In this document: piece by piece, positions 32,689-62,738 of the stretch | Numbering within the stretch: the first letter of the stretch is position 1 | Layout: each line of letters starts with the position of its first letter | Assembly (NCBI GenBank): GCA_963558965.1 | Contig: CAUWIT010000008.1 | Location: forward strand, 11,423-75,422 | Length of the DNA: 64,000 bases | Source: an uncultured Clostridia bacterium | GTDB taxonomy: Bacteria > Bacillota > Clostridia > Peptostreptococcales > Anaerovoracaceae | Reading direction: 5' to 3' | Notes under the pieces: generated by a model | Told to the model about the DNA's origin: nothing | The model's database searches: none | The model's input: only the letters and a program-made list of their open reading frames with translations | Translations under genes and position numbers: made by a program

Positions 32689-33777
32689 GCTTTGTGTCCT
32701 CCAATTTGGTTATTTCTGTCTTTGCCGGTTGCTCCCTTTTGCAAGTTTGTTCCCTTTAGTATCATATTTTTTCCAAATTTCTTTTTTATATCTATCAATG
32801 TTTTTTGTATATTTTTTTCGTTTTCTTGATTTTTATCTTCTGCGCTGCTATTCTCAGACAATGGAGACATTTCAGCTAATTCAAACATTGATATTTGTTT
32901 TTCGCCTTTTGAAATTTCTTTATATGCCTCTTCAGTTATCACTTTACACGCTGCAATAGATATTCGGCGCACCAATAAATTTGGATCTACTATTTTTTCA
33001 TACAGCTCCATTACTTTTTTAACTATTGTTGAAGTAGATGAAGTTGGATTGTCGAAGTTTACTGTGCCGTGAGCGTGATATGGCACTTTTCGCCCATAAT
33101 GATCTGTTTTTATCGGCCCTTTGTAATTTGATTTCCTTCCATCTTTTAAATTTGCTATATCATATCCCACAGTCAAAACTACTTGCTCACACAATAAGCC
33201 TTTGTCTACTAAGTCAAGTACAAGGGCATCTGTCATTTCTCTAGTAACTATTTTGACTTTTTCGTATTGGTATGGGCAATGCAAAACTTGACCAGAGCCT
33301 ATGCTTTTGTTATCTGGCTTATATTTTTTTATATCGTCCATGGTGCAAGGCTCATATCCCCATGCGTGATCAATTAAAAGCTCTGCATTTATTCCAAACA
33401 TTTTATATAGCAATTCTTCATTGTAGTACTCATCTGGTTTTCCTATGGAACATCTGGCAATATCCCCCATTGTATATAGTCCTTTTTTCTCCAATTTTTT
33501 TGAGTACCCTTTTCCTACTCTCCAAAAATCAGTTAAAGGTCTATGATCCCATAATTTTTTTCGATATGATATTTCATCTAATTGAGCTATACGAACTCCA
33601 TCTTCATCTGGCTCAATATGTTTTGCTACAACGTCCATAGCTATTTTACTTAAATATAGATTTGTTCCTATGCCAGCTGTTGCAGTGATCCCAGTTGTAT
33701 TTAGCACATCTCTTATTATGGTAATGGCAAGTTCATGTGCTGTCATTTTATATGCCGCTAGATAGTTTGTTACATCC
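32685..33777 (-). CDS. Y-family (ImpB/MucB/UmuC-like) DNA polymerase, exon 2
   Basis: After splicing it continues ...M-DVTNYLAAYKMTAHEL; TAGIGTNLYLSKIAMD and LIDHAWG motifs; joined ORF 34720-34281 + 33777-32685 = 1533 nt, 510 aa. Confidence 0.88.
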
Positions 33778-34280
33778 CTGATTTTTCATTGTCCAATCCT
33801 TTTAAATCTATAAATCCTAACAGATTAGACTTTATGAATTTTGTTGTTCATATAAGTTCGCTACTCCTTATACAGTTCTCTTATGAACTTCTTATGTTTT
33901 CACATAAGCACAGACTATATCTTTTCCCTCATCCTTATCTATTAAGATTAACTGTTAGGGCGAAACCGCTTCCATCACCTATAGCTTGTGATGTACTTCC
34001 CTTACGAGGAATAGTCGTTGAAGTTTCTCCTATTTGGAGCTTACCTGCTGATTGCCGATTAGTAAGTACTTAGGATTTAACCATATACCATCTAATTAAT
34101 TTTTTCTACTTTCGCAACTTTCGCACTTGAGCTTATTTCATCTCTATGCTGTAGTCTAATTAGCTTTACGGGTTTCCAGCAATTCAGTTTCTTTGTTACT
34201 ACATACAGGTTTCCCTATACGCTTACTATTTTTAGCTAATTTTTTTACGACTTAAGTCATAAGTTTCCTTAGCTAGTCTA
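33778..34280 (-). mobile_element. ORF-less mini-IStron: 503-nt group I intron with IS200/IS605-type ends
   Basis: P GAATTGCTGGAAA 34173-34185, Q AATCAGCAGG 34044-34053, R TTCAACGACTA 34012-34022, S AAGATATAGTC 33913-33923; inserted after TTTAT; ends in TCAG; exact removal restores SIDEVFMDVT. Confidence 0.88.
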
Positions 34281-34720
34281 ATAAAAACCTCATCTATAGA
34301 ATAGATATGCATATCTTCTGGGGCAATATATTTTAAATAGATATCGTAAATCCGAGTGCTGTAATCCATATAATATGACATCCTCGGTGTTGCCACTATA
34401 AAATCTATAGCCAAAGACGGATTTGCTTTTAGTTCTAAGTCATTGTCCGATTTACCTAATAATTTATTTCCAGGGGCCTTTGATTGCCTTAAAGCATTGA
34501 CTTCTTTTATTTTTTGTTTTACCTCAAAAAGCCTTGGCCTGCCAGGTATACCGTAAGATTTTAAAGATGGTGATACAGCCAAACAAATTGTTTTATCTGT
34601 TCTGCTGTTATCAGCTACAACTAAATTGGTTGTCAATGGATCTCTGCCTCTCTCTTGACACTCTACAGAAGCATAAAAAGATTTTAAATCAATGGCTATA
34701 TATTTTCGTTCCTTCTCCAT
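34281..34720 (-). CDS. Y-family DNA polymerase, exon 1
   Basis: YIAIDLKSFYASVEC, PRMSYY, catalytic YSIDE just before the intron. Confidence 0.9.
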
Positions 34721-46311: not shown

Positions 46312-46392
46312 GATGATAACTCCTCATAATTTATAGAAGGCTCAGTTAATATTTCTTATATAAATGAGCCTTCTATTAACTCATTTTAATTT

Positions 46393-49300
46393 TTATTTTT
46401 TACTTTTAATTTTTACTACTGAGCTAAATGAGCTCTTTCTACCATCTTTTGATATGGCTCTTACTTTATAGTAGTAAGTTTTTCCCTTTTTAGCAGAAGT
46501 GTTTTTATATGAAATATTTTTAGTTGTGTACTGTTTTTTAAATGTACCTGTTTTATTTACTGTTGATCTATATACTTCATATTTATATGCCTTGCTTACT
46601 TTTGTCCACTTAATATATGGCTTAGTTGATTTTATGATTTTAATTGTAGGCTTTATAACTTTTGTCTTATATCTAATCTGTCCACTAGTGCCGACAAGTT
46701 TATCATTTTTGTTGTAAGCTCTAACTTTATAATAGTAAGTCTTACCTGGTGTTGCACCTTTATAAGTGTAGCTATTTCCTTTAGTTGTACAAATTCTAGA
46801 GTATTGACCTTTTTCGGATGTTGCTCTATAAACTTTATATGTTGTTGCTGTTTTTACGTCTTTCCAATTTAATATCGGTTTTCCATCAACTGAACGATAT
46901 AACATTTTGACAGATATATCGTAAGGACTTCTCGCTTTACTTACTATATTACTATATTCACTATTATTGCCATTTTTAGCAATTGCAACTACCTTATAGT
47001 AATAAGTGTATCCTGCTACAGCTCCTGTATTTGTATAACTTGTACCTGATGTTGTATATGTTTTTGAGTATTTTCCATTTTTACTAGTTGCTCTATATAC
47101 CTCATAACTGCTAGCATATTTAATCTTAAACCAAGTAATTCTAGGTGCTCCTTTATTTAAACTTACTGAAATTTTTGGAGCATCAACAGTTAATTTGCTA
47201 AAACTGTCTTCTGCTGCTAACAACACATCATAATTTGTAACAAACTTTTGTTCCTCGCTAGTTAAACTATTATATGCTTTTCTTGCATCAGCAATAGCTG
47301 TTTCTTTTTCAAAAGTTACTGTTCCGATTCCATTGATTTTAGCAATTACAGCGTCTACTTTTTCCTTTGAAATTTCTTCTGCTGTCTTGATTTTGTCTAA
47401 CTTAGCTTTTGCTTCGTTTACGATATCCATCATTTCAGTTTCTGTAGTTGCACTAAACAATGCTGTTTTCGCTTCTAAAATAACATTATCTATTTCATCT
47501 TGCTGTGCCTTGTTATACTTTGATTTATCTTTGTAAGTTTCTATTATACTTAAATATTTATTTACTAATGAATCTTTTGATATAACTTTTACTGTTGATT
47601 TTCCTATAACAACTCCGTTTTCTGCTGTTGCAGCAATAGTTGTTTCACCAGCTTTAACTGCTGTAACATTTCCTTCTTGGTCAACTGTTGCAACTTCTTC
47701 ATCTAGAGAGCTCCAACTTAAATCCTGATAAGTCGCATCTATAGGATTTACTTTAGCCTTTATTTTAATCTTGCTATTTTCTAAGATAACAACTTCTTTT
47801 GGATTTAGTTCAATAGAAGCCACTGGTATTTTTTCTACAAGTCTTAGCTCGTAATTTTGTTTCGCCTTACCGTTTTCTGCTGTTACTTCAATAGTTACAC
47901 TTGCAGATTTAGTTTTATCGACTCTATATACTGCTGCATATTTATTTGAAGTTCCATTCAATTTTAATTCTGTACCTTTTTCAACTGCTTCTCCATTTCT
48001 CTTGCTTGCAACATTTTCATTTGCTAAAACCTTTACAGTTGCATTTGGATCTGTTGATTTTGCCCAAATCCTATAAAACTCATCTTCTTTTTGATCAGTT
48101 ATATCACAATCATAATTATAGACTTCACTTGAAAATTCATTTTTTAAAGGTATTAAATTGCTGTTGTAACTATTTGATGTGCTTACCTTTAGTTCGCTTA
48201 AAGTTGTAATAGCCGCAGTTTGAGAAATTTTCAAATTATATGTTCTTGCATATTCGCCATTAGATACTTTAATTGCTACATCTTTTGGTTTATCGCTTAT
48301 TTCTATTTTTTGCTTACCTTTGTATTCACTGCCATTAACAGTTACTTTTGAACCAGCAGATGCTTTTACTTCTAAATTAACGTATTTATCTTCACCTTTA
48401 ACTTTTACAATATAATTTCCATTTCGTGAATCAAAAGTTTGATCCCATGATACTGCGCTTTCACTATCTGTAGTAACTTTAATATCTTCAAGATATGCTG
48501 GGTTTGACTCTACTGCCATTAAATAGCAAGAGTCATTCTTGTAGTAGATAGTTCCCTTTTTATCTGCGCAAAGTGAGCTAATACAGTACTGCTGTTGTTC
48601 TTTAGGTGGTATAAATAACTCTGCACTGATTTTTGCTGCTTCACTTTGATCAGGAGTATCATAAGTGTAATAAATTCCTCCTGGATTTGCATTGTATGTA
48701 AAGTAGATATATACTCTTCCATCTGCTTTGCCATCATTGTTAAAATCGTCATTTACGTGAGCCGTAGACACTAAAGCTCCTGTTTGTGGGTAGCCTTTAA
48801 TAGGTATTCTATAAAGTTCTGAGTTGCTACTTAATTTTTCTTTGCTGTTATCGACTACTGCAAATCCATGGCCTCCGTCAGGGTTAAACTGACCACCTTT
48901 GCCACAAACTCCAATATATATTTTGTTTTTGTAGACTACTGGTGAAGCAGTTGTCATGCCCCCTAAATCAATGTAGCTATCTTCTCCTAAATTACCATTT
49001 TCATCTACTTTTATCTTATGTAACTGACCACCTTTTGTGCTGAAATACAAGTATCCATTGTCATACACTGTAGTAGTTCTAATATCACCTTTGATACCAT
49101 CTACTCTGCTAATAACTTCTCCTGTTTCAGTATCTAGTGTATAAAATACTGCATTTGTAGTGTATTCCCCTTCACTAGTTCCATCATCTGAACCTACTGC
49201 TATATACTTAGGTGTAGCATATGCACCAGCCCAATAAAAACCTCTAGGTGATGGGTTCGCTGAATTTTTAAGTTCCTTATCAAATGTTAGATTCCAATCA

Positions 49301-49983
49301 GGATTTTCTTTATCGCTTTTATTTCCAGAAGGTCTAAAAATCCACTTGAAATCCTTTATATCGCCATTTACATTTTCATCGTCAGTAGATACGCAAATGT
49401 ATTCACCATCTTTACTTTCGCCATTCCATGTACCTGTAACAATATATCCTTTGCCATCACTGCCTTTTGTATAGCTGATTGGAGAAACTGTCTGTCCTCC
49501 AATTTCTTCAGTGTGCCAAAGGGGCTCAAGAGTTTCATAATCGACAGCCTGTATCATGCCATTTCCAACTTGAGCAAATATTTTACCGTCTGCATAGATT
49601 AGTGGATTCATAGCATATCCCACATTTGCTACCATTTCATACGGGCTTCGCATAACCTCCTTTCCGGTTTCCTTATCCACTTTTACTATTTCTTTTCCCA
49701 CACCGATGTACAAATATCCGTCTAAAATAAGTGGCGGTGTTGGTGCTGCTCCCCAGCCAATTCCAAATTTACTTGCCCACTTTAGGTTTGTCGATTTGGC
49801 ACTAGTCGGGGTATTTACATCAGTAATACCATTGTTTTCCTGATTGTTTCTGAAGTTGTACCATTCTGCATTTGTAACTTCTTTAGCGTATCCAAATGAA
49901 GTAGGAACTATAACTGTTCCAAGCATCATAACTACGATAAAGAGCGACAAAAGCTTAGTAAACTTCTTCCCTCTAATACTCAT
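46393..49983 (-). CDS. Secreted protein: PQQ-like beta-propeller, cadherin-like sandwiches, Big_2 domain, helical repeat, three FnIII-like repeats
   Basis: Signal peptide from ATG 49983 (SD AAGGAGG); WYNFRNN..NNG and repeated W-blade motifs; YEVYRATSK / YYYKVRA repeats. Confidence 0.75.
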   Translation of the reverse strand: MSIRGKKFTKLLSLFIVVMMLGTVIVPTSFGYAKEVTNAEWYNFRNNQENNGITDVNTPTSAKSTNLKWASKFGIGWGAAPTPPLILDGYLYIGVGKEIVKVDKETGKEVMRSPYEMVANVGYAMNPLIYADGKIFAQVGNGMIQAVDYETLEPLWHTEEIGGQTVSPISYTKGSDGKGYIVTGTWNGESKDGEYICVSTDDENVNGDIKDFKWIFRPSGNKSDKENPDWNLTFDKELKNSANPSPRGFYWAGAYATPKYIAVGSDDGTSEGEYTTNAVFYTLDTETGEVISRVDGIKGDIRTTTVYDNGYLYFSTKGGQLHKIKVDENGNLGEDSYIDLGGMTTASPVVYKNKIYIGVCGKGGQFNPDGGHGFAVVDNSKEKLSSNSELYRIPIKGYPQTGALVSTAHVNDDFNNDGKADGRVYIYFTYNANPGGIYYTYDTPDQSEAAKISAELFIPPKEQQQYCISSLCADKKGTIYYKNDSCYLMAVESNPAYLEDIKVTTDSESAVSWDQTFDSRNGNYIVKVKGEDKYVNLEVKASAGSKVTVNGSEYKGKQKIEISDKPKDVAIKVSNGEYARTYNLKISQTAAITTLSELKVSTSNSYNSNLIPLKNEFSSEVYNYDCDITDQKEDEFYRIWAKSTDPNATVKVLANENVASKRNGEAVEKGTELKLNGTSNKYAAVYRVDKTKSASVTIEVTAENGKAKQNYELRLVEKIPVASIELNPKEVVILENSKIKIKAKVNPIDATYQDLSWSSLDEEVATVDQEGNVTAVKAGETTIAATAENGVVIGKSTVKVISKDSLVNKYLSIIETYKDKSKYNKAQQDEIDNVILEAKTALFSATTETEMMDIVNEAKAKLDKIKTAEEISKEKVDAVIAKINGIGTVTFEKETAIADARKAYNSLTSEEQKFVTNYDVLLAAEDSFSKLTVDAPKISVSLNKGAPRITWFKIKYASSYEVYRATSKNGKYSKTYTTSGTSYTNTGAVAGYTYYYKVVAIAKNGNNSEYSNIVSKARSPYDISVKMLYRSVDGKPILNWKDVKTATTYKVYRATSEKGQYSRICTTKGNSYTYKGATPGKTYYYKVRAYNKNDKLVGTSGQIRYKTKVIKPTIKIIKSTKPYIKWTKVSKAYKYEVYRSTVNKTGTFKKQYTTKNISYKNTSAKKGKTYYYKVRAISKDGRKSSFSSVVKIKSKK

Positions 49984-50014
49984 ACTTACCTCCTTTTTTA
50001 TAAAATATTTTTTA

Positions 50015-51289
50015 TTACCAAATATCAACTTCTTCACGCCATCCACCAGCGTTTACACTTATATATTCACGACCTAAAGAAGTTGTGAATCCCCATCGGA
50101 TTTCGTCCCCATCATTTAAATCTATATTGGAAGTTCCTGTTTCTAAGTATTCCCCATTTAAAATACATATCCAGCCAGAATCCTTATAAAAGTCAAACTC
50201 TCCTAAGCTGTCTTCTTTGTGTTTCATGATAGTGGCACCCTCAGCATCGAGTTTATCTTTTAATTTTTTAGGAATGGCATATCCGTTAGTTATACCGTTT
50301 TTGTAAATCCTGCTTAAGTATGCTCCTGTATATCCTGAAGATTTCATAGTATATGAAATGCCCTTGCTATCAAGCACTCTCTTAGTTACTTCCGCTATAC
50401 TTTCATCTTTATAAATATCTACAGTCATACCTGTTTCAACTATAGTTCCCTTACCTATAGTTTTAGCTTCAATAGTCACTCTAACTTGACCTATAACTTC
50501 TTTTTCTCCATTTGGATCTGCATAAATGGTGTAATTTTTAGTAATTGTATTATCTTCACTATCTTTTACAGTTATTGTTACTTTGTTTTCGCCTTCATTG
50601 ACGTCCCACTTGTATTTGCGTTCGTAGTTATTTGAACCAGAACTGCTAATTTTTTCGCCATTTACCCTAACTGTAAAATTAAATGCTTCTATTTTATATC
50701 CTTTGTAATCCTTAGCAGATAATTCAAATGACAATTTTAAACCTGCTATTGTCTCACCATCTTTTAGATTTGTTACAATAGTTGGCAATTTAGAGTTTTG
50801 GTCATCATCTCCTGGATTTTCTGGAACAACTGGATCGGTTGGTTTTTCTGGTTCTACCGGATCAGTTGGCTCAGTTGGTCCATCTGGACCATCTGGGCTA
50901 ATTTGCCCATCTGGATTTGTCGGTTTACCTGGACTTGTTGGGCCATCTTTACCATCGCTTGGTTTATTTTGTTTGCTCGGTTTTTCTTTTTCAATCTCCT
51001 GCTCTATACGATTTTCAAATTGATTTCTCTTTTCTTTTTCCTTTTTTTCAATTTGTTTTTGCTGTTGCTTCTGTTGTTTTTTGTATTCTTTTTCTTGATC
51101 CTTATTTAAAGAATACTTCTCCCCGCTAACTAGCACTTGCGAGCGATTTTTATTGATACTAGATATTGGATTTTCTCCTCTAGCCTCTGGTGTATTTTTC
51201 ACAACACCGTACAAAGCTCCAATTGAAATGGCCAAAATCACCAGTATTGCCACTGTAATTTTCTTTTTATTTGAAATGTTTTTTAACAT
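50015..51289 (-). CDS. Membrane-anchored DUF4430 protein with Pro-rich linker and Ig-like domain
   Basis: N-terminal TM helix, PT/PD-rich stalk, C-terminal SLGEFDFYKDSGW. Confidence 0.72.
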   Translation of the reverse strand: MLKNISNKKKITVAILVILAISIGALYGVVKNTPEARGENPISSINKNRSQVLVSGEKYSLNKDQEKEYKKQQKQQQKQIEKKEKEKRNQFENRIEQEIEKEKPSKQNKPSDGKDGPTSPGKPTNPDGQISPDGPDGPTEPTDPVEPEKPTDPVVPENPGDDDQNSKLPTIVTNLKDGETIAGLKLSFELSAKDYKGYKIEAFNFTVRVNGEKISSSGSNNYERKYKWDVNEGENKVTITVKDSEDNTITKNYTIYADPNGEKEVIGQVRVTIEAKTIGKGTIVETGMTVDIYKDESIAEVTKRVLDSKGISYTMKSSGYTGAYLSRIYKNGITNGYAIPKKLKDKLDAEGATIMKHKEDSLGEFDFYKDSGWICILNGEYLETGTSNIDLNDGDEIRWGFTTSLGREYISVNAGGWREEVDIW

Positions 51290-51294
51290 AACTC

Positions 51295-52230
51295 TTACCT
51301 TTTTTCTTGGTACAGTTTTTCATTTTTTTCTAATAGTTTAATGCTATCTAATGCTAAAAGTGCTTTTTCTGTTGCCATCACATTTGGATCATCACTGTCT
51401 TCATCAACTGTGTGTTTAAAACCGCCATCTGTTTTATATCTCATAAGTCCATCGTATAAGCTGTTGCCATCCTTTATAAATCTTTTATCATTTACAGGAT
51501 CAACTCCCACAGATGTTAGACCTATAATCACTTCTACTGTTGATTCGCAGTTTCCATAACTTCCGTCTTTTTGTTGCTTATCTGATAGCCCATCTACACA
51601 CTGGTCTATTGCACTTTTTACTTTTTTATCTTCCTTGTAGTAGCTTAGTCCTTGCAAATACATAGCCCCATAATCCACTATATTTTCAGTTTTATATGCT
51701 TTATTTTTTACTATCTCATCTGTCAATATATCTATGTACTTCTGTTCATTTTCAAGTTTTACACCTGCTACATTTGAAGCGATAAGGGCAAATGCCACTG
51801 CATTATTTCCTTGGTCTGTTACTTTTTTATAATTATCCAAAGGTTTGACTATATTGTATCCTTCTATATTTTCAGGATTTTCCCCTACGGCACAAACTCC
51901 AATAGTTACCCTTGCGTATTCCGTATAATACTTTTCGTCCAACACACCTTTTTCAGATTTTACAGTTGCCCTAACATCATCAAAATATGTGGTGAAGTAA
52001 CTTTGTTCATCATCTAACGAAATACCACTAGCTTTGACACCTTTAACCGCCCATTCTCCACCGACAGAACCTACACTTGCCGTTGGATTTAGCTCTTTGA
52101 CATCTGAAACTGTATCTTCAATTTGCTTGTTTATATCACCTTTGCCACAGCCGGTAAAAAACAATGCCATACACATGGTCAATACAACCAAAATAGATAT
52201 GCTACTTTTTCTTTTTTTGATTTTTTCCAT
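51295..52230 (-). CDS. Lipoprotein with alpha/alpha-barrel (prenyltransferase/squalene-oxidase repeat-like) fold
   Basis: Lipobox FFTG-C; QQKDGSYGNCESTVEVIIGL and DGGFKH QW-like repeats; MATEKALLAL. Confidence 0.72.
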   Translation of the reverse strand: MEKIKKRKSSISILVVLTMCMALFFTGCGKGDINKQIEDTVSDVKELNPTASVGSVGGEWAVKGVKASGISLDDEQSYFTTYFDDVRATVKSEKGVLDEKYYTEYARVTIGVCAVGENPENIEGYNIVKPLDNYKKVTDQGNNAVAFALIASNVAGVKLENEQKYIDILTDEIVKNKAYKTENIVDYGAMYLQGLSYYKEDKKVKSAIDQCVDGLSDKQQKDGSYGNCESTVEVIIGLTSVGVDPVNDKRFIKDGNSLYDGLMRYKTDGGFKHTVDEDSDDPNVMATEKALLALDSIKLLEKNEKLYQEKR

Positions 52231-54229
52231 GAGATTTCTTCTCCTTTTTAAGCCTCTTCAAACTTGCCGCCATGTTTTCCCTATCTTCTTCACTTATCTC
52301 ATCTTGACTGTAAGCAGCCTTGTTACCTAAGATTTTTTCTTCTTCGCCTATATCCAATTTCAGTTCTTCCATATAGCCATACATAGCAGCTACAGCGACT
52401 TTGGCCTCGCCTTTTTTAAACAACTTGTTTCGTCTGTAAATAACTATCCATTTTTTAACACATCTATAGAGGAAATAAATTAACAATAGTAGTAACAATC
52501 CTAAAATTGCAATAGTTACAATCACTCCAATTTTAAAATCTATATCTTTGTTAGTCTTGTTTTCCTTTGTTTGTTGCTTGCTTTTAACACTGTTGTTATT
52601 TTGTTCAAACTTCTTTTTAACAGCATTATTTGACAATCCTATTGTCATATCTGCTTCTTCCATGCGACCTTCGTACTCTGGGCAAACTTCAATAGGTACA
52701 AAACCTACACCATCTACATATATTTCTGTCCATGCATGAATGTCTTTTGGGGTTATTTCTACTTTTTCTCCCGCCTTAGCTTTTTTCACAGCATCAGGTG
52801 TTAAAAGATACCCTTCTACATACCTAGCTGGTATGCCATAATATCTAAACATTAGAGTAGCCGCTGTTGCATAATGTATATCATAGCCTTTATTTTTTTC
52901 GAAAATAGCTGAGGTTACATCTGTATTTTTATCTGTGATTAGTCCTGGATTTTCAGTATACAAAATGTTTTCATCAAGATATTTTTTTACCTTGTTTATA
53001 GCTGTTTTGTATTCTATATGTCCTTTTGATTGATCACCTTTATTGCCGATATAGTTTTTCATCAATCTTATATCGCTAATAGATAAATATGTGTATTTTT
53101 CATAGACAAACTGATTGTAATAGCTTTCGTTTACTAAATATTTTTTCATATCTTTTGTTTTTTCTTTAGTAAACATTTTGGCTGCTATTTCAGTCCAGTT
53201 TTTTACGCTGTTTTGTTTTGTCTTATATTGATAGCTTTTCATCTTACTTCTATTGTTTTTTGTAAGATAATTGTTGTACCAATTTACTTCGTCTCCACCT
53301 AGCTCGCTTATTTCATAAGGAATATATCCATATTTTTTATTTGCCTTTTTTACATTTATCTCTACGTCTATATCCTTGTCTTTTGTTCCAGTTAATATGC
53401 CCGCCTGTCCTATTTGACCCATGCCATTGAAATTTTCTTTTTCTAGCCAATACATTAGATTTTTTGATTGGTCATAATCTTCGTAAGGAAGTGTTTCCCA
53501 TGTATTTCCGTTATGTACTTCGCCAACAAATCCTCTTAAATACATGGATTGTGGTTTTGACATAGTTACTTCCAACGCTACTTGGTCTTCGTCTACATCT
53601 CGTTTTGTTTGGTACAAATCACCTCCACCTAGGGGAGATTTGCCATATTTAAATTGGTCTATTTTCTTTTCTATTTTTTTATCAATTAGTCCAATTTTGT
53701 ATGGTCTTGTCATATATTTGCTAGTTGCCGGCAAAAAAACTAATGTTAAAACCAGCGAAACCATCAAAGCAACCAATATGACATTCCACCTTGATAAGCT
53801 CTTTTGGTTTATGTATATAAAATCAAGTGCCAATGCGCCTACAAGGACAATGGCCCACAATACTGCTGGGGCTAGGCTTGTCACTAATGTGGGGATCAGA
53901 GGTATTGCCACAAAAATTAAAAGTAGCCACTTGTTTTCACTTTTAAAAATCAACCAGCTTACCAATGCAAATGCGATTATTGTAATGGGGATAAATAAGC
54001 TAAAGCTGTCGCTTGCTCCTGATAATTCTTTTAAAACTATCCCGTCATCATTTAAAACTGTTGTTGCTATAGTGTTCCACAACTTTTTGAAGCCTATTGT
54101 AAAGTTAGTTATGTTGAAAACACTACAAAAACATCCGACTTCTGCAACAGCTGTAAATACACATAGCAAAAGCGTTACGAATTTATTATTTTTTAAATTG
54201 TTCTGGTCTATATAAATTAACTTTTCCAT
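52202..54229 (-). CDS. Membrane protein with transglutaminase-like domain (catalytic Cys replaced)
   Basis: Multi-TM N-terminus; GYDIHYATA...GIPARYVEGY...HAWTEIY. Confidence 0.8.
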   Translation of the reverse strand: MEKLIYIDQNNLKNNKFVTLLLCVFTAVAEVGCFCSVFNITNFTIGFKKLWNTIATTVLNDDGIVLKELSGASDSFSLFIPITIIAFALVSWLIFKSENKWLLLIFVAIPLIPTLVTSLAPAVLWAIVLVGALALDFIYINQKSLSRWNVILVALMVSLVLTLVFLPATSKYMTRPYKIGLIDKKIEKKIDQFKYGKSPLGGGDLYQTKRDVDEDQVALEVTMSKPQSMYLRGFVGEVHNGNTWETLPYEDYDQSKNLMYWLEKENFNGMGQIGQAGILTGTKDKDIDVEINVKKANKKYGYIPYEISELGGDEVNWYNNYLTKNNRSKMKSYQYKTKQNSVKNWTEIAAKMFTKEKTKDMKKYLVNESYYNQFVYEKYTYLSISDIRLMKNYIGNKGDQSKGHIEYKTAINKVKKYLDENILYTENPGLITDKNTDVTSAIFEKNKGYDIHYATAATLMFRYYGIPARYVEGYLLTPDAVKKAKAGEKVEITPKDIHAWTEIYVDGVGFVPIEVCPEYEGRMEEADMTIGLSNNAVKKKFEQNNNSVKSKQQTKENKTNKDIDFKIGVIVTIAILGLLLLLLIYFLYRCVKKWIVIYRRNKLFKKGEAKVAVAAMYGYMEELKLDIGEEEKILGNKAAYSQDEISEEDRENMAASLKRLKKEKKSHGKNQKKKK

Positions 54230-55268
54230 ATTCCAAAAATCTTTCTAATGCTACATCTCTGTTTGATACTACTGCAAAATTCGAATAATTTTTATCGCAC
54301 TGTGCTTCTATAAACTGTTCGCTTACAGGTCTTAACTTATCTGTAAAAGGACTTGTTAAAAACTCTGGCAAAATAGACCACAGGTCTTCTTCGTCTTCTA
54401 TTTTAAAAGTTACAAATTTTTGTTTTGTCCAGTTATACCAACCTATATTGTGTGGTATATTTTTTCGTAAAAATGTATATGACAGGGATACTGCAAATTC
54501 TGTTGCTTGGCTTTTCTCGATTTTTCCAAATGTTTCATCTTGCAATATGCCTTTGTCTACGATTATCATCAGTTTGTTATCAACGGGTAACCCTAGCTCT
54601 CTTATAACTATGTCATCCATTTTTCCTGATAGTTTCCAATGTATTGATTTAATGTTGTTTCCCGGCTGATATGTGTTAATACCAAAAGTTTCACTGCTGT
54701 CATTACCTTTTTTATTTGGTGAAAATTTGTAGCTTTCCATATCGTAATGGCTCTGTTCTTCTTTTGTAATATCAAGCTCTCTTACTTGGGGCAATACATA
54801 TACATAGTCATATAAGTCTTCTTCTATTTTTTCTGACATTTTGCCAAAGGTGTCCTTCACTTCCACTTCTTTTAGTTCAACTAAAATACCGCCGCAAAGT
54901 GAATCTTTTATTTGAAATTTTATTTCTTTTTTTCCTTTTGGTCCTATGTTTACAATCCAATTTTCACTGTCTTTTTGTCCAGTAATTATATTTTTTATAT
55001 GGACTTTTACAGATATATTTAAAATTGGCATCTGACCTTGGTTTTTCAATTTTACTGTGATTTGGTTTTGCTTATCTGCTGAAACTGTTTCCATAGATAC
55101 TTGCAAATTTTTCTTGCCTTTTTCAACCATGATTTTTGAAAATACAAGATACAAAACTGTCAATAGTACAAGGCTTGAAACTATCATTCCTTCTTTTGAT
55201 ATATATGCAAATATTGTTACAGCCAAAATAGCTAAAACCAAAATCAATTTCTTTATCTTATTTTTCAT
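54186..55268 (-). CDS. DUF58 domain protein (MoxR partner)
   Basis: GNDSSETFGINTYQPG..IHWKLSGK motif; N-terminal TM helices. Confidence 0.82.
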   Translation of the reverse strand: MKNKIKKLILVLAILAVTIFAYISKEGMIVSSLVLLTVLYLVFSKIMVEKGKKNLQVSMETVSADKQNQITVKLKNQGQMPILNISVKVHIKNIITGQKDSENWIVNIGPKGKKEIKFQIKDSLCGGILVELKEVEVKDTFGKMSEKIEEDLYDYVYVLPQVRELDITKEEQSHYDMESYKFSPNKKGNDSSETFGINTYQPGNNIKSIHWKLSGKMDDIVIRELGLPVDNKLMIIVDKGILQDETFGKIEKSQATEFAVSLSYTFLRKNIPHNIGWYNWTKQKFVTFKIEDEEDLWSILPEFLTSPFTDKLRPVSEQFIEAQCDKNYSNFAVVSNRDVALERFLEYGKVNLYRPEQFKK

Positions 55269-55270
55269 AG

Positions 55271-56203
55271 TTAATCAAGTTTCGGTGCTACTACTTCTTT
55301 TAAAATATCTTCTAAAACTGCTGTGCTATCTTTATCTGCAAGCTGAGCTTTTGGATGAAGGATAATTCTGTGTTTATTAACATCTACGTACAATTTGTCT
55401 ACGTCTTCTGGTGTTACAAAATTTCTACCTTGTACATAGGCCTCAGCTTTAGCAATAGATGCAAGAGCCAATGCTCCACGAGGGCTTACGCCAAGTTTTA
55501 CCAAAGGATGATTTCTTGTCCCTTCTGTTAAAGCAGTTATATATTTATATATTTTTACATCTACAAAAGTATCCCTTGCTTCTTTTATCATATTTTCCAG
55601 TTGCTCTACAGTTAGAACTTGTTCTATTTTATATAAGGGATCTTCTTTATCTCTGTTTTGCAATATAGCAACTTGGTCTTCAAAGCTAGGATATCCCATG
55701 GAAAGCTGTATCATAAATCTATCCAGCTGAGCTTCTGGCAACATCTGTGTGCCGATAGTGCCTATAGGGTTTTGTGTTGCCATTACTATAAATGGATGTG
55801 GCACATCATGTGTAACTCCATCAACTGTTACTTTGCCTTCTTGCATTACTTCTAGCAAAGCTGACTGAGTCTTACTTGAAGTTCTGTTTATTTCATCTGC
55901 CAAGAAAAAGTTGCACATAGCTGCACCTGGATTGTATTTAAATGATCCTTTTTCCTTATCATACATAGTGAAACCTGTTATATCTGAAGGAACCACATCA
56001 GGTGTAAACTGTACTCTGTTAAATTTAAGTCCCATAGCTTTTGTACAGGCCAATGCCAATGTAGTTTTTCCAACTCCTGGTATATCTTCTAACAAAATAT
56101 GGCCTCCAGCTAAAATAGCTACTAAAACTTTTTCAATAACTTCGTCTTTACCTGTTACAGCTTTTCCTATTTCCTCTTTGATTTTTAAGATTTCTGTATT
56201 CAT
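55271..56203 (-). CDS. MoxR-family AAA+ ATPase
   Basis: EDIPGVGKT, RVQFTPDVVPSDITG, DEINR, ATQNP, LPEAQLDRF. Confidence 0.93.
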   Translation of the reverse strand: MNTEILKIKEEIGKAVTGKDEVIEKVLVAILAGGHILLEDIPGVGKTTLALACTKAMGLKFNRVQFTPDVVPSDITGFTMYDKEKGSFKYNPGAAMCNFFLADEINRTSSKTQSALLEVMQEGKVTVDGVTHDVPHPFIVMATQNPIGTIGTQMLPEAQLDRFMIQLSMGYPSFEDQVAILQNRDKEDPLYKIEQVLTVEQLENMIKEARDTFVDVKIYKYITALTEGTRNHPLVKLGVSPRGALALASIAKAEAYVQGRNFVTPEDVDKLYVDVNKHRIILHPKAQLADKDSTAVLEDILKEVVAPKLD

Positions 56204-56251
56204 CTCATCTCTCCATCTGTTTAAAATTGTTTTCTAAATTATTTTTGGGCA

Positions 56252-56283
56252 TAAAAAAAAGACTATTTGCATTACAAATAGCC
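56252..56283 (-). terminator. Attenuator terminator of cobalamin riboswitch 1
   Basis: GGCTATTTG-TAATG-CAAATAGTC followed by a U tract on the minus strand. Confidence 0.8.
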
Positions 56284-56320
56284 CGTATATCTATCTATTA
56301 CAAATGATACTCGTCATTGA

Positions 56321-56485
56321 TATTTTCAAGCAAGTCTCCTGACTTGTGCATCATCACAGACCTTTGCCATCCCAAAAAAACTCTTATTTCAGTGGCTTAT
56401 TAAAGGGCTGCTCCTCACTTACAGTGGCGGTACCGTACAGGACTTTAACCTGTTTCCTTTATTAAGTATATTAACACTTGAAAAT
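56321..56485 (-). promoter_or_regulatory. Cobalamin riboswitch, long class-I type
   Basis: AAGGAAACAGGTTAAAGTCCTGT...CCGCCACTGTAA...GCCACTG...GGGATGGC...AAGTCAGGAGACTTGC; own promoter TTGACA(56527-56532)-17-TAAAAT(56504-56509). Confidence 0.93.
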
Positions 56486-56523
56486 CTATTCCCCTGTCCT
56501 AATATTTTATATCTTTAGCATTA

Positions 56524-57273
56524 TCATGTCAACAATGCTTTTACAGTTGATTCGCACTGTCTACTCTCTACAGTCATTGAAAACTGTGGATTTTTAGCCT
56601 GTCTAACAATTTCGACAATTTTCTTTATATCCATATTTCCCTTATCTATTGGATTGTGCTCATCTTCGCTTCCAAAGTTGTTATGTATATGCATATGAGT
56701 CACATAAGGAGCTAAAACTTTTGCCCATGTTTCCACATTTATTTCCTTGTCGGTCATAGCATTTGCATGGCCCACATCTAGACATATGGTCGCTCTTTTA
56801 TCGTCTATTGCTTCTATTAGATCTCGCATTACATATGGCTCATCTTCGAAAACGTTTTCTATCATTATATTAAAATCCGCCGGTTTATCACGTAAAAATG
56901 TTCTCCAAAACTTTACGGATTTTTCTATGTGCCACTGTTTATAATACAAAAGAGGTATGTAACCTGTGTGTACAACCATTCTTTTAACTCCTAATTCTTT
57001 ACAGATATCGTATGCCTCGTTTAACCTATCTAAGCCTAACTGAACAGCTCTTGGATCTATGGACGCCGGTATGATTTCAGTAAAAGGCCCATGAACTATA
57101 GCTTTTTGAGCATTTGATGCAGCGAAATCCTTTTTCATTTGTCTCAATGTTCTTTCTCGTCTATCTAAATTTTCAGAGATGCAAAGATGGTTAAATTCCA
57201 TGTTTACTCCATATTTATTTATCACTTCTATGGCATTTTCTGAAAAAGTAGCCACATATATATTAGTATTCAT
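56524..57273 (-). CDS. Xylose-isomerase-like / AP endonuclease 2 TIM-barrel metalloenzyme
   Basis: VHGPF, VVHTG, IENVFE, LDVGHA, HMHIHNN, HNP, TVES metal-ligand pattern. Confidence 0.82.
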   Translation of the reverse strand: MNTNIYVATFSENAIEVINKYGVNMEFNHLCISENLDRRERTLRQMKKDFAASNAQKAIVHGPFTEIIPASIDPRAVQLGLDRLNEAYDICKELGVKRMVVHTGYIPLLYYKQWHIEKSVKFWRTFLRDKPADFNIMIENVFEDEPYVMRDLIEAIDDKRATICLDVGHANAMTDKEINVETWAKVLAPYVTHMHIHNNFGSEDEHNPIDKGNMDIKKIVEIVRQAKNPQFSMTVESRQCESTVKALLT

Positions 57274-57838
57274 CTATGTTTACATCCTTACCGTTGTCAC
57301 ATGTATATACCCATACGACTTTATCATTGTTTTTTAACTTGTATTGAGAACATCCGTAATTAGGATATTTTTTATTTACATAATACTGCCATCCACTTAA
57401 CTTGCCACCATCAAATTCGTAAATGTGATTGATACCTTCTACATAATATGAATCGTAGGATTTTGTATAGCTGTACTCAGTCTGTATGTTTTCCTTGTTT
57501 GTAGCTTTTTTTAACAAATCAAAAGCAGTTGCATCTTTTTCAAGAGTATACTGAGTTTCCTTTAATATAACTCCATCTTTTGGAACCCATTTTGCTTTTT
57601 CCTGTTTTTTTAGTTTGTCCATATTGTTAGATAAATTGTCGCACCTTATTTCCATAGTAACTTTTATAGTATTTTTACCATCTACATCTTTTTGTGCGTC
57701 CTTCATAGCCTTGTCTTTCGTTTCAATATTCATCGTCCCAAAGACAACTATTGCAACAACAACTAAAATACATATAATCCCTATATTTCTCTTCTTTTTA
57801 TTTTTTATTTTTTTCTCAAACTCACTCATAAAACTCAC
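57263..57838 (-). CDS. Membrane-anchored DUF4430 protein (likely cobalamin-binding partner of the ECF transporter)
   Basis: YYVEGINHIYEFDGGKLSGWQYYVN..YPNYGCSQY. Confidence 0.85.
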   Translation of the reverse strand: MSFMSEFEKKIKNKKKRNIGIICILVVVAIVVFGTMNIETKDKAMKDAQKDVDGKNTIKVTMEIRCDNLSNNMDKLKKQEKAKWVPKDGVILKETQYTLEKDATAFDLLKKATNKENIQTEYSYTKSYDSYYVEGINHIYEFDGGKLSGWQYYVNKKYPNYGCSQYKLKNNDKVVWVYTCDNGKDVNIDEY

Positions 57839-58770
57839 CTGTAAATACCGTACTTGATTTTAATCCTTTCAAGTTTTTTTATAAAACTATCTCCAAATAA
57901 AAATACGCAAATAGATGCTGTCAAAGCATGTACAAAATCATATGGAACTCCAGCTATATACAAAAGCTTTATTCCCTCCAAAGTGATTTTGCCTCCTCCT
58001 GGCATATTGGCATTGTTTACTACACTGCTTATATTCATAATGCCTCCATAGATAATAAAGGTCATAAGAAATGTCATAACCCCCATAGTTATCCCATCTA
58101 TAGGAAACTGCTTTCGCTGTAGAAGCAATCCGATCACAAGGCCTACACCTCCAAAAAGATAAAGTCTCCATCCTAAAAATCCATCTTTATCAGGCCAAAT
58201 TAAATAAACTATATACGCAACTAATATTGCAAAAACTATAGATAAAATAGGTCCTGCAACAACCTTAAAAGTTCGAGATTTCAGCTCTTCGTTTCTATCT
58301 TTGTTAAAAATAAGGCCTTCTAAAAATCCAAGAAGTCCCCAGCAAAACATCTGCCACGGAGTCCACGGCCCTTGACCCATATAAAAATTACATATCAGTC
58401 TGGACAAAGCCCCTATTAAAAATCCCGCTTCCGGCCCTAGAGCGATACCTGAAATAACCACCATAGCCGTACCTATTTGTATAGGCATAATAATATGAAA
58501 AAATGTATGCACAGTAACTGTTATAGCGCTCATCATAGCAATCAGCATTATCTCTCTAGCTTTTGGTTTTCGCTTTTCAAATACCATAAAAAATGGAGCC
58601 ATCGTTGCCGCCAAAATTATAAAGCTAACTAGCATATACATATTTTCCCCAAGCAATTTGTAACATAAAAATGAAGCTAAGGGAATCACAACTAAAATCA
58701 TGGCGCACATAACTTTCACACGTTTTTTGCTAGCCGCTTCGTACTGAGTTAAAGCACCTTCCTTAGCCAT
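57835..58770 (-). CDS. ECF transporter S component (CbrT-like, extended)
   Basis: GPEAGFLIGALS, GQGPWTPWQM..WG; lies in a B12-riboswitch operon. Confidence 0.85.
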   Translation of the reverse strand: MAKEGALTQYEAASKKRVKVMCAMILVVIPLASFLCYKLLGENMYMLVSFIILAATMAPFFMVFEKRKPKAREIMLIAMMSAITVTVHTFFHIIMPIQIGTAMVVISGIALGPEAGFLIGALSRLICNFYMGQGPWTPWQMFCWGLLGFLEGLIFNKDRNEELKSRTFKVVAGPILSIVFAILVAYIVYLIWPDKDGFLGWRLYLFGGVGLVIGLLLQRKQFPIDGITMGVMTFLMTFIIYGGIMNISSVVNNANMPGGGKITLEGIKLLYIAGVPYDFVHALTASICVFLFGDSFIKKLERIKIKYGIYR

Positions 58771-60398
58771 TGCTCCGCCTCCTCACAAGTCACTATATTT
58801 TCATTGTAGTTTCTAAACAACTTATTTGCAGAAGTCGTATAAAAATTATTACCTGCAAAAAAGCTTTTACTTTGGTCGTATGAAACGATTTCACCATCAA
58901 AAAACATAGCGCATATTTCGCCGTACTGAGCACAAAATTCAATATCGTGGCTTACCATAAAAATCGTTTTGCCCTTATCAAGTAAATCAAAGAAAATCCT
59001 AGCCAAAGTTATTTTGAAAAAAGGATCAAGCCCCTTTGTCGGCTCATCTAACAAAATCACATCAGGCTCCGTTAACAAAACCTTACCAATAGCAAGTCTC
59101 TGTTTTTCACCACCTGATAAATCATAGGGATTTGCTTTGCGCAAATGGCCAATTTCCATAGTTTCAAGCATCTCCTCTACTTTTTTAATTTTATAATCAT
59201 CATCAAAAGCCATATGACTTATGCCTTCATACATCTCCTCTTCAACAGTTATTTCCGTAAAAAGGGCCTCTGGATTTTGTGGAACCATTGAAATTTTAGT
59301 ATCTTCCATATATTTGACTTTGCCCCTAAGAGGCTTAATATAGCCTGACACGGTTTTCAAAAGAGTGCTTTTCCCCGCTCCGTTTCCCCCTAACATGCAG
59401 TAAAAGCTTCCCTTAGGCACTTTTAAATCCACACCTTTTAAAATAAAATCCTGACCTTTGCCGTATTTAAACCACACATCCTTTAGCTCGATAATTCCCT
59501 GTTTATCGTCAAACTCAAAAGGTTTTTCCTCTCTTTTTACAGGAATAACATTTCGCGCTGCCAACTTTTCTTCTAACAAAAGTCTACCATCCCTTACAGT
59601 AAGCGGCGAATTACCTTGCCATTTCTCACCTTGAAAAATTTTCATAACAGTAGGAAATCCATAAAACATAGGATGTCTTTTTTCCACCGACGGTCCGTCT
59701 AATAACTTAACAACCTTTTTAGGACTTTCATTGGCAATAATTTTCCCTTCATCCATAACGATTATTTTATCCGCCATAGGTATAACTTCCTCTAGTCTGT
59801 GTTCAGATATAACAATCGTAGTCCCAAGCTCTTTATTTATCTTTTGCAAGGTATTTAAAAACTCAGAAGTCGCAATTGGATCAAGCTGAGAAGTAGGTTC
59901 ATCAAGTATTAGTATTTCAGGCTGCATAACCATTACAGATGCCAAATTTAACAGTTGTTTTTGTCCACCAGACAATTGAGTCACATCTTTTTGGAACCAT
60001 GTTTGTATGCCAAAATAGTTTGCCATCTCAGCAACACGCCTTTTGATAACCTGATTTGCCATTCCTAAATTTTCTAAACCAAAAGCCAGCTCGTGCCACA
60101 CTTTATCTGTAACGATTTGCGCTTCTGGATTTTGCTGGATAAAACCAATTTGACTTACGCTTTTGCGCTCATCTATCTCCTCTATTTCTGTGTTTTCTAT
60201 AAAAACCTGACCTGTTTTCTCTCCATATGGTATCATCTGCTTTTTCAAATGACGAAGCAACGTACTTTTACCACATCCAGATTTGCCACATACCACTGCA
60301 AATTGCGATTTTTCAATTGTGAGATTTATATCCTCAATAGCATTTTTTTTGGCTAGGGGATATTTAAAAGTTAAATTTTGGACTCTAATTTTTTCCAT
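58749..60398 (-). CDS. ECF transporter duplicated ATPase
   Basis: Two NBDs: GKSGCGKST/LSGGQKQ/LDEPT and GGNGAGKST/LSGGEKQR/LDEPT. Confidence 0.92.
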   Translation of the reverse strand: MEKIRVQNLTFKYPLAKKNAIEDINLTIEKSQFAVVCGKSGCGKSTLLRHLKKQMIPYGEKTGQVFIENTEIEEIDERKSVSQIGFIQQNPEAQIVTDKVWHELAFGLENLGMANQVIKRRVAEMANYFGIQTWFQKDVTQLSGGQKQLLNLASVMVMQPEILILDEPTSQLDPIATSEFLNTLQKINKELGTTIVISEHRLEEVIPMADKIIVMDEGKIIANESPKKVVKLLDGPSVEKRHPMFYGFPTVMKIFQGEKWQGNSPLTVRDGRLLLEEKLAARNVIPVKREEKPFEFDDKQGIIELKDVWFKYGKGQDFILKGVDLKVPKGSFYCMLGGNGAGKSTLLKTVSGYIKPLRGKVKYMEDTKISMVPQNPEALFTEITVEEEMYEGISHMAFDDDYKIKKVEEMLETMEIGHLRKANPYDLSGGEKQRLAIGKVLLTEPDVILLDEPTKGLDPFFKITLARIFFDLLDKGKTIFMVSHDIEFCAQYGEICAMFFDGEIVSYDQSKSFFAGNNFYTTSANKLFRNYNENIVTCEEAEQWLRKVL

Positions 60399-61258
60399 CT
60401 ATACTCTCCTGCTATATCTATAACTGGCGGGATTAGGCTTATTAAAAGAAACAATCCCATATTTAAAACAAATATCCAACTTATTTTTGGCAGTACCAAC
60501 ACTGGATAAAAATATATTTTAGTATTGACTAAATTTGCTAGCACTATTATGGCCATTATTGAAATTGCAAAAACTCCTATTAAAATTTTATCTCTCAAAG
60601 ACCATTTATACAGGTAAAAACTCGTCCTGCCTTTTAGTCCGTATCCTCTTGACGCCATGGAATCAGCGCTTTCAATAGATGACTCCAGCGACCAAGCTAT
60701 AAGTATTGAAACTTTTTTTACAAGTCCACCTTTTTTGCCTAAGCACTTTTGTCCCATATCTATTTCTTCATATCTGTTTTTTAACAATGGTATATATCTT
60801 AAAATCATGGAAATAAGCAGTCCAAATAGAGATGAAATCCTTGAAAAAAGGTACATTATCATCTCCCCATTCACTAAAATATTGAAGCAAGAAAACCATA
60901 TGATAACAGTTGAAATCATCACGCCAGAAAAAAGTCCAAATATGGCTGCTTCCAAAGTTATACGATTGGAGTTTATAAAAAACAGCACCGTTTCTCCATC
61001 GTGAGTAAACAATGTATTAAACACAGTGGTAAATACTATAGTCGACAAACATATAATCAGATTGAATTTTATCGCCTTACGTCCCTTTAATAAAATCGAA
61101 TAAAAAATAGCGACAATCATGGATAAAACCATAATACCTGGTGAAGCCATGGACATGGTAATCCCTATAACTATGGCAAAATATGCAAATATAACTAATG
61201 GGTGATAAGTTTTAAATTCGCATTCCTGTCCTATTCCATCTCTAACTAACTCCTTCAT
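60371..61258 (-). CDS. ECF transporter T component
   Basis: YHPL N-terminus, multi-TM, WSLESSIESADSMASRGYG. Confidence 0.9.
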   Translation of the reverse strand: MKELVRDGIGQECEFKTYHPLVIFAYFAIVIGITMSMASPGIMVLSMIVAIFYSILLKGRKAIKFNLIICLSTIVFTTVFNTLFTHDGETVLFFINSNRITLEAAIFGLFSGVMISTVIIWFSCFNILVNGEMIMYLFSRISSLFGLLISMILRYIPLLKNRYEEIDMGQKCLGKKGGLVKKVSILIAWSLESSIESADSMASRGYGLKGRTSFYLYKWSLRDKILIGVFAISIMAIIVLANLVNTKIYFYPVLVLPKISWIFVLNMGLFLLISLIPPVIDIAGEYRWKKLESKI

Positions 61259-61259
61259 T

Positions 61260-62261
61260 TTATATCCTTTTTTTACTAGATTTTGCAGCGTTGTTGCTGT
61301 CGATACCTATTTGCCAAAGGGCATTTGTCCAAGTCCCACAACTTGCAACCAATCTTTTTTTCAATTCTTTTGGCACGTCTTTTTTCTCAACCATGCCGCC
61401 CCTAGCATCAGCTAAATTTTTTAATTCTGCCAAGTCCATTTTGTCCTGATCAGTTAAATTTAAAACTCTGTATAGACAATTTGTTAAAGCCGGATTGTGT
61501 TTCCCTAGTTCCGTCTTTTTTCTGTAATCTATAAATGTGTTTGCAAATGGCTTAATTCGCTTTACCGGCTCTAAATCGATTTGAAATAAAACATTTCGCC
61601 ATGATCCAAAAGCCTTTAAAAGTTTATCTTTTTTATCCGTCGCAATTTCACTTTTTAAAGGCGCTCTGCCTACTTTGTACGCCTGCTCCTTTATATCCAA
61701 AAGCAAATTTTTTGTTTCCCTATCTAAATCCCTTTCTTTTTCCAGCTTTTTATTTTTCACTACCAAAGTATCAAGGCCTGCTTCTTTTACAATATCTCCC
61801 CAAGAAGTAGCATATTTTTTCAATTTTTCACTTATTTCTGGTACTTGATGAGGATGAGGAATGTATCCTTGGTTCTCTGTAATTTTTTGTAGTTCCTCTA
61901 TCAGTTTCTTTTTTTCGGCATTTTCTTCTTTTATCTTGTCTAAAGTTTTGCCACCACTGCCAGCAGCCTTACTTAAACCTGCTTCTTTCAAAGCATAAGG
62001 CCATTTTTCAAATCTAGTTTTTATATACTCTTTAAAAACTTTTGGAACTTCCTTTTGTGATGGCGTATGATTTAACAACTGAGCCTTTTTCCTCAGTATT
62101 TCCAATAGTTCTTTATCTGTGAAACTCTTATAAATCTGATACCCTATTTCATTTGCAATAGAATATCTCTCTATAAGTTTTTCATCTGCTCCTTCTGTAA
62201 GCACTAGTTTTCTAAATTGTTTTTTATATATTTCTATCTCTTTACTAGCTATATTTTTCAT
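61260..62261 (-). CDS. Protein with four homing-endonuclease-associated-like helical repeats
   Basis: Four ~45-aa repeats of the pattern L..L......G..P...E........F.SW...L..AGL; start 62261 after SD GAGGG. Confidence 0.65.
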   Translation of the reverse strand: MKNIASKEIEIYKKQFRKLVLTEGADEKLIERYSIANEIGYQIYKSFTDKELLEILRKKAQLLNHTPSQKEVPKVFKEYIKTRFEKWPYALKEAGLSKAAGSGGKTLDKIKEENAEKKKLIEELQKITENQGYIPHPHQVPEISEKLKKYATSWGDIVKEAGLDTLVVKNKKLEKERDLDRETKNLLLDIKEQAYKVGRAPLKSEIATDKKDKLLKAFGSWRNVLFQIDLEPVKRIKPFANTFIDYRKKTELGKHNPALTNCLYRVLNLTDQDKMDLAELKNLADARGGMVEKKDVPKELKKRLVASCGTWTNALWQIGIDSNNAAKSSKKRI

Positions 62262-62287
62262 ATGTCCCTCATCTAACTCATATATAC

Positions 62288-62314
62288 AAAAAAACTGCAA
62301 CTATTGTCGCAGTC
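62288..62314 (-). terminator. Attenuator terminator of cobalamin riboswitch 2
   Basis: GACTGCGAC-AATA-GTTGCAGT followed by a U tract on the minus strand. Confidence 0.8.
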
Positions 62315-62366
62315 CCTTATTTTTTACAACACAAAAACAACTTATCTGATCCTCCGTCAGTAAGTT

Positions 62367-62494
62367 AAAATATATATGCAGGTCTCTGGCTTAGGTTTTT
62401 AAATATCCTTCACAGTGGCGGGACCGCGCAGGACTTACACCTGCTTCCCTATTTACCAATTACATTTGCTTATGCAATTCGTACATATATTTTA
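62367..62494 (-). promoter_or_regulatory. Cobalamin riboswitch, short class-II type
   Basis: AATAGGGAAGCAGGTGTAAGTCCTGCGCGGTCCCGCCACTGTGAAGG...CCTAAGCCAGAGACCTGC; lacks the P8-P12 extension. Confidence 0.92.
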
Positions 62495-62738
62495 TTATTT
62501 TGCTATTTAGTATAATTTTATCCTTAAGTCAATTTAATGTAAATAGGTTTAAACAAATTTAGTCTTTAAACTCACCTAAAATTTACGACGTGTAGCAAAA
62601 GTCATTCCTGAATAATAAATATTATTTTTTGTAATGTCAATATATTTATATTAATACATTTTTCTGTGAATCTATTTACCTTTACGCTTTAGTATGGTAT
62701 AATTAAAAGGCTATTTATAATTGAAAGGAGGCGGTTTA

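Follow-up and report, generated by a model that had tools for sequence, protein, structure and literature searches.

As described by Mok et al. (2020, PMC7733943), the cobamide remodeling phosphodiesterase CbiR of Akkermansia muciniphila (Amuc_1679; NCBIfam NF041277) is a member of the AP endonuclease 2 superfamily. It converts cobamides to cobinamide-phosphate and an alpha-riboside, is O2 sensitive, requires DTT, and is inhibited by EDTA; 25% of cbiR genes adjoin transporter genes (PMC7733943). Genes for the adenosylcobinamide amidohydrolase CbiZ are likewise often linked to transporters (PMC7733943). The protein described here, referred to as the target, would share with CbiZ the role of opening imported cobamides for lower-ligand exchange; CbiZ differs from it in having an unrelated fold and in the bond that it cuts, which is an amide. 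Endonuclease IV (Nfo; TIGR00587; PDB 1QTW) resembles the target in its TIM barrel and in the nine ligands of its trinuclear zinc site, and 1qtw is found in profile search with an E value of 8e-9, but the target has none of the Nfo loop insertions and its genes are found in the context of cobamide metabolism, not DNA repair.

The target gene is located in a window of 64,000 nucleotides, the whole stretch of DNA that was analyzed, from an uncultured member of the Clostridia. The open reading frame (56524-57273, minus strand) is complete, encoding 249 amino acids from an ATG start codon, with an AAGGA Shine-Dalgarno-like site approximately 13 nt 5' of the ATG. It is the final gene of an ECF operon under a cobalamin riboswitch, in which all genes lie on the minus strand. 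The preliminary description had the gene translationally coupled to the DUF4430/ECF genes under a B12 riboswitch, and the locus bears this out: the target and the upstream DUF4430 gene (57263-57838) share 11 nt, from the ATG of the former to the TAA stop codon of the latter, at ATGAATACTAA, and the riboswitch scores 73.9 bits. The elements of the operon are given below in order of transcription, followed by a second riboswitch.

62612-62640, minus strand: promoter-like site TTGACA-17-TATTAT (11/12) ahead of riboswitch 1; a consensus match only.
62360-62503, minus strand: cobalamin riboswitch 1, which leads the ECF operon (Rfam RF00174; 73.9 bits, gathering score 31.5).
61260-62300, minus strand: HNH_repeat (PF18780) protein, the first gene of the operon; soluble and highly charged (Pfam E 1.5e-30).
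60371-61258, minus strand: CbiQ-like transmembrane coupling (T) component of the ECF transporter (Pfam CbiQ, E 3e-4, under the threshold; assigned from position and synteny).
58749-60398, minus strand: fused ECF ATPase A-A' with two ABC domains (TIGR04520, 353 bits, and TIGR04521, 332 bits, on two stretches).
57835-58770, minus strand: ECF S (substrate-capture) component, 311 aa (Pfam ECF-ribofla_trS E 2.4e-18, ECF_trnsprt E 3.4e-11).
57263-57838, minus strand: membrane-anchored extracytoplasmic DUF4430 protein (Pfam DUF4430 E 1.1e-19; N-terminal hydrophobic anchor).
56524-57273, minus strand: the target, an Endo-IV-type trinuclear-metal TIM barrel of 249 aa (Pfam, ligand alignment, AF2 model, tree, and AU test).
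56312-56496, minus strand: cobalamin riboswitch 2 (Rfam, 98.1 bits).

Assignment of the T component agrees in position and synteny with the ECF operons of three related loci (L016, L063, and L064). A search of curated family models gave no match of the S component to a known B12-specific family, so that import of complete cobamides is itself a prediction. The DUF4430 protein is a putative corrinoid-binding helper. Sequence analysis of the target revealed no signal peptide, so the protein is expected to be cytoplasmic. The HNH_repeat protein is rich in lysine and glutamate, soluble, and without a nuclease domain; in a metagenomic relative (P0187, 444 aa) an HNH_repeat region is fused to a TIM barrel of the target family that has lost the ligands H61 and E139.

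Riboswitch 2, which begins 27 nt past the target stop codon, delimits the operon at its 3' end. A separate promoter-like site (56504-56532) and a terminator-type platform (56260-56284) belong to this riboswitch. The operon that it leads (40993-56496, minus strand) encodes a MoxR AAA ATPase, a DUF58 protein, a transglutaminase, two proteins without assigned function, and three large surface proteins of 424, 1217, and 1772 aa carrying DUF4430, PQQ_2, Big_2, and fn3 domains. It looks like a cell-surface apparatus for corrinoid capture, and it is syntenic in four relatives (L016-L019), in one of which (L018) the target gene follows it directly. Two further features of the window were noted. A group I intron (Rfam RF00028, 33891-34226, 66 bits) interrupts a Y-family DNA polymerase gene (impB/mucB/samB; 32685-34720, minus strand), leaving an upstream ORF (34232-34720) that covers IMS positions 1-105 and a downstream ORF (32685-33746) that covers IMS positions 114-148, HHH, and IMS_C. 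A raiA RNA motif (RF03072, 132 bits) is found at 1516-1678 on the minus strand.

The target matches the Pfam family AP_endonuc_2 (PF01261) with 83.6 bits (E 2.4e-23), above the cut-off of 31.1. AF2 folds it with confidence (pLDDT 97.5) as a TIM barrel of alternating strand-helix elements, and all Foldseek matches of the model fall within the AP_endonuc_2/xylose isomerase-like TIM-barrel superfamily. The nine ligand positions of endonuclease IV are occupied in the target by H61, H102, E139, D166, H169, H195, D204, H206, and E236, and the same residues align in the host genome's own Nfo and in the CbiR proteins named as such by NCBI; the full endonuclease-IV-like ligand set claimed in the preliminary description is thus present at 9 of 9 positions. 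We assembled a family alignment of 123 representatives from an exhaustive HMMER search, in which H102, E139, and N140 are invariant and conservation is 90% or higher at H61, D166, H169, H195, D204, H206, and E236. Being common to Nfo, CbiR, and the target family, the ligand set is not specific to CbiR, and we rejected it as a pointer to that enzyme.

Other parts of the alignment do separate the three groups. The target and the named CbiRs share the motifs C-x-D-x-G-H and H-x-H, where Nfo has D-x-C-H and H-x-N, and insertions that in Nfo follow H102, the second His, and E139, the bridging Glu (for example, "GKGSEVG"), are missing from both the target clade and CbiR. In structures of endonuclease IV, these Nfo-specific insertions are the loops that recognize DNA. 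Their absence is one of the points against the idea that the target is a paralog of endonuclease IV that repairs abasic or 3'-blocked DNA or RNA and is found in B12 operons by chance. Such a role would account for the complete trinuclear ligand set, and the target matches an Nfo model (43.9 bits) on a level with the CbiR model (44.1 bits). The score against TIGR00587, however, is 29.3 bits, far under the cut-off of 129.65, and the host already possesses a bona fide Nfo, scoring 292 bits and encoded on another contig, which rules out the target as the cell's own Nfo.

Among solved structures, MJ1311 (PDB 3WQO) and TTHB071 (PDB 3AYT/3AYV) are closest to the target in both sequence and fold, with E values of 4.6e-16 and 1e-6 to the target protein and of 3.7e-41 and 9e-24 to the family profile, respectively, and with Foldseek TM scores to the target of 0.79 and 0.78. 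Both are structural-genomics proteins without an assigned function, approximately 22% identical to the target; MJ1311, deposited as a "D-tagatose 3-epimerase-like protein," aligns with the target's Endo-IV-type ligands, and the TTHB071 structure came from a crystal soaked with ZnCl2. The nine Endo IV residues of MJ1311 have reportedly been noted before, in a protein with no DNA groove. On the Thermus thermophilus plasmid pTT27 (L131 27973-28737, TTH_RS10345), a gene that is probably TTHB071, as judged by protein length and by its "sugar phosphate isomerase/epimerase" annotation, is paired with the 5'/3'-nucleotidase gene surE, about 5 kb past the end of the cobalamin cluster.

All public names of target homologs likewise read "sugar phosphate isomerase/epimerase" (named sources: Anaerovoracaceae, Emergencia, Family XIII, and Peptostreptococcaceae). 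If these names were taken at face value, the target would be a sugar-phosphate isomerase or epimerase, and its Foldseek matches do include tagatose/psicose 3-epimerases and UlaE at TM scores of 0.7 to 0.75; the Foldseek search against the PDB did not tell phosphodiesterase relatives from epimerase relatives. A weak match to the fructoselysine 3-epimerase model was also found for 16 of the 123 family representatives. The names, however, are generic labels derived from Pfam, no epimerase or isomerase model matches the target itself at an E value of 0.01 or lower, and sugar-utilization genes were absent from the surroundings in every examined locus. Sugar epimerases of the same fold bind a single metal through four ligands (Glu-Asp-His-Glu), beyond which the target family conserves five further ligands of the Endo IV type. 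The preliminary description had named clustering with sugar epimerases as an outcome contrary to its proposal, and no such clustering was seen. We regard an epimerase role for the target as very unlikely.

A check of the target against a CbiR model, suggested in the preliminary description, returned 44.1 bits (E 1.7e-11) on the NCBIfam equivalog NF041277, below its cut-off of 105 bits. Among NCBIfam models, CbiR nevertheless gave the best match for 113 of the 123 family representatives, apparently none of which reached the cut-off (best E value, 5.4e-24). In profile-profile comparison, the target family scored 72 with CbiR and 51 with Nfo (117 and 102, respectively, for the wider family), slightly closer to CbiR, at approximately 18% identity to the named CbiRs. 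Trees were calculated as quick IQ-TREE maximum-likelihood runs with SH-aLRT support only, using as CbiR references four NCBI-named proteins (P0287, P0374, P0385, and P0394), reached via Anoxybacter BBF96_01705, in place of the A. muciniphila enzyme. The target fell within a separate superclade of 43 rows on a long stem (SH-aLRT 99), and the named CbiRs (99) and Nfo (100) each formed a clade of their own; the deep branching order of the three groups was weakly supported (39). An AU test rejected uniting the B12-linked subclade of the target with the named CbiRs (dlnL 65.4, p 0.0036), for a group that was defined after the tree had been seen.

The score of 44 against 105 bits, the separate clade, and the AU test together rule out the target as a member of the CbiR family, and because the cut-off was failed, identity is only about 18%, and the clades are different, the function of CbiR is not transferable to the target by orthology. 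Of the earlier designation as CbiR-like, an Endo-IV-type metal barrel in a cobamide-linked family stands, and membership in CbiR proper, by HMM, tree, and AU test, does not. The likenesses extend from the superfamily, the metal ligands, the two shared motifs, and the missing Nfo insertions to the genomic setting, since the genes for both proteins adjoin cobT/U/S or corrinoid transporter genes; the target family differs in its separate clade and in co-occurring with CobC in operons. Among the 178 sequences in Table S1 of the CbiR paper (PMC7733943) there are four weak rows from Firmicutes and no names from Clostridiales or beginning with Anaerovor-, Peptostreptococc-, or Eubacteri-.

Some Firmicutes proteins lie near or over the CbiR cut-off, and within 9 kb of their genes (L020-L026 and L091-L097) neither a B12 riboswitch nor cob genes were found. 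Four of them (L093, L095, L096, and L097, in genomes G239, G058, G007, and G100, respectively), with 95 to 107 bits on the CbiR model, adjoin an RNase P RNA gene. The equivalog cut-off may therefore admit paralogs unrelated to cobamides, and both sets of loci served as tree references only.

We surveyed the gene context of the target family over approximately 18 kb around homologs in 29 genomes, identifying riboswitches with Rfam and neighboring genes by tblastn with host proteins. Orthologs 40 to 57% identical to the target occur in four arrangements, each of which is related to cobamides. In the first, the gene ends an ECF T-AA'-S operon and is followed by a B12 riboswitch (the window, L016, L063, L064, and L076); in the second, it directly precedes cobT-cobU-cobS(-cobC) in the same orientation (L065, L066, and L067); in the third, it is solitary and directly downstream of its own B12 riboswitch (L062, L070, L071, L073, and L074); and in the fourth, it stands behind the MoxR/transglutaminase/DUF4430 surface-protein operon (L018).

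Co-occurrence was assessed in 121 genomes of the host's family, one per genus. The gene is present in 23 of these, and CobS is encoded in all 23 carriers but in only 28 of the 98 noncarriers (Fisher p 6e-11, for related genomes that are not independent). Twelve of the 23 carriers, each the one genome of its genus, have the gene on the strand of cobS and no more than 3 kb upstream of it. The neighborhood of CbiR genes is matched by the gene's last place in a B12-riboswitch ECF operon in the window and, in 12 of 23 genera, by its position directly ahead of cobT-cobU-cobS. In the set of 50%-identity representatives, P0173 is a fusion of AP_endonuc_2 with a full CobT, followed by cobU-cobS, and P0161 has the same build. 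Within the host genus, the gene is accessory, being carried by 2 of 5 sister genomes. The link of the target family to cobamides is thus strong and independent of the operon in the window; what had been described as a B12-linked gene belongs to a family tied to nucleotide-loop genes well past that single operon, through riboswitches, cobTUS, and CobT fusions.

This link is limited to the subclade that contains the window's gene, and more distant family members (23 to 35% identity) were found without a B12 context. In one branch (L077-L081; for example, L078 6303-9705 of genome G608), TIM-barrel members 33 to 35% identical to the target occupy the first position of an operon that also encodes CinA, a Cof-type HAD phosphatase, and DJ-1/PfpI. 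The CinA of L078 consists of a MoCF_biosynth domain and a CinA domain, the latter of which we take to be the NMN deamidase domain, and this company hints at a small ribose-phosphate molecule as the substrate of the branch. In another representative, P0144 (L130 1853-4513, 886 aa), a target-family barrel with all ligands kept is fused to a full RecQ helicase (DEAD, Helicase_C, RecQ_Zn_bind, RQC, and HRDC domains), and a divergent RNase_T exonuclease gene adjoins it. The existence of the non-B12 members and of the RecQ fusion indicates that the TIM-barrel fold serves more than one substrate.

The RecQ fusion also bears on a role in DNA repair, which it would favor. It is known from one family representative on a single 4.6-kb metagenome contig, however, and the ties to B12 riboswitches, to cobTUS, and to CobT through fusions recur over many genera and in several arrangements, for which chance is no explanation. 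A DNA repair function for the target is very unlikely.

The preliminary description had noted the absence of cobS, cobT, and cbiB from the window, correctly; these genes are located elsewhere in the host genome (1.63 Mb, 99.9% complete). Contig 11 carries cobT-cobU-cobS-cobC, and contig 3 carries a riboswitch-led anaerobic cbi operon, cbiMNQO-K-D-L-F-hemA-cbiH-J-hemC-cobA/hemD-cbiB-cobD-cbiP-cbiC. The genome contains four cobalamin riboswitches in total, and no CbiZ was found in it. The host makes cobamides de novo and owns the rebuilding machinery of CobU, CobS, CobT, CobC, and CbiB.

From the operon, the family's gene contexts, and the metal site, we propose that the target is a CbiR-like phosphodiesterase that acts on the nucleotide loop of cobamides, is coupled to their import, and belongs to a clade separate from CbiR, a reading to which we assign a probability of roughly 0.55. 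Hydrolysis of cobamides by the target is predicted here from gene context. Riboswitch 1 would permit expression of the operon during a shortage of usable cobamide, and the DUF4430 protein together with the ECF S/T/AA' transporter would capture and import complete cobamides. The target would then cut the phosphodiester bond that joins the aminopropanol phosphate to the lower-ligand riboside, giving cobinamide-phosphate and an alpha-riboside, and CobU, CobT, CobS, and CobC would add the organism's own lower ligand. Cobinamide-phosphate, the product of CbiR, would enter this rebuilding directly at CobU. Against cleavage of the loop, a host that produces cobamides de novo has a less obvious need for remodeling.

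The contexts across the family also allow for a role in nucleotide-loop metabolism in which complete cobamides are not cleaved. The target might act on lower-ligand ribotides or ribosides (molecules like alpha-ribazole-phosphate, or salvaged fragments) or on misassembled loop intermediates (cobamide-5'-phosphate or Cbi-GDP), and would thereby feed or proofread the steps of CobT and CobS. The dominant context of the gene is the first position in a cobT-cobU-cobS operon, relatives are fused to CobT, the maker of the alpha-ribotide, and the gene is confined to CobS-positive genomes (all 23 carriers among the 121), each of which would suit such a role; the neighbors of the non-B12 relatives, a HAD phosphatase and CinA, which acts in pyridine-nucleotide recycling, suggest small ribose-phosphate substrates for the wider family. 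The known loop pathway, however, has no missing step that calls for a phosphodiesterase, and coupling to an importer and stand-alone riboswitches better fit action on an imported, complete corrinoid. Simple replacement of CobC is unlikely, because canonical CobC is encoded in the same operons (L066 and L067) and in the host genome. We consider a loop-metabolic role of this kind the chief alternative, though a doubtful one, and cleavage of the nucleotide loop of imported cobamides remains our preferred reading.

Whether the AP endonuclease 2 superfamily has been recruited a second time, in a clade separate from CbiR, to cut the cobamide nucleotide loop is, on the sequence evidence, a proposal with even odds. 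The use and release of cobamides by gut bacteria are now predicted from CbiZ and CbiR, the known dedicated remodeling enzymes; certain CobS homologs are also capable of remodeling. The clade is common in Anaerovoracaceae-like gut Clostridia, in importer operons, at the head of cobTUS operons, and in CobT fusions. If the proposal is correct, the fusions would point to a physically coupled machine for loop exchange. Genome-based predictions of remodeling would then overlook a group of Clostridia whose enzymes are labeled "sugar phosphate isomerase/epimerase," and a cut-and-replace treatment of lower ligands in Firmicutes, de novo producers included, would be far wider than predictions based on CbiR and CbiZ suggest.
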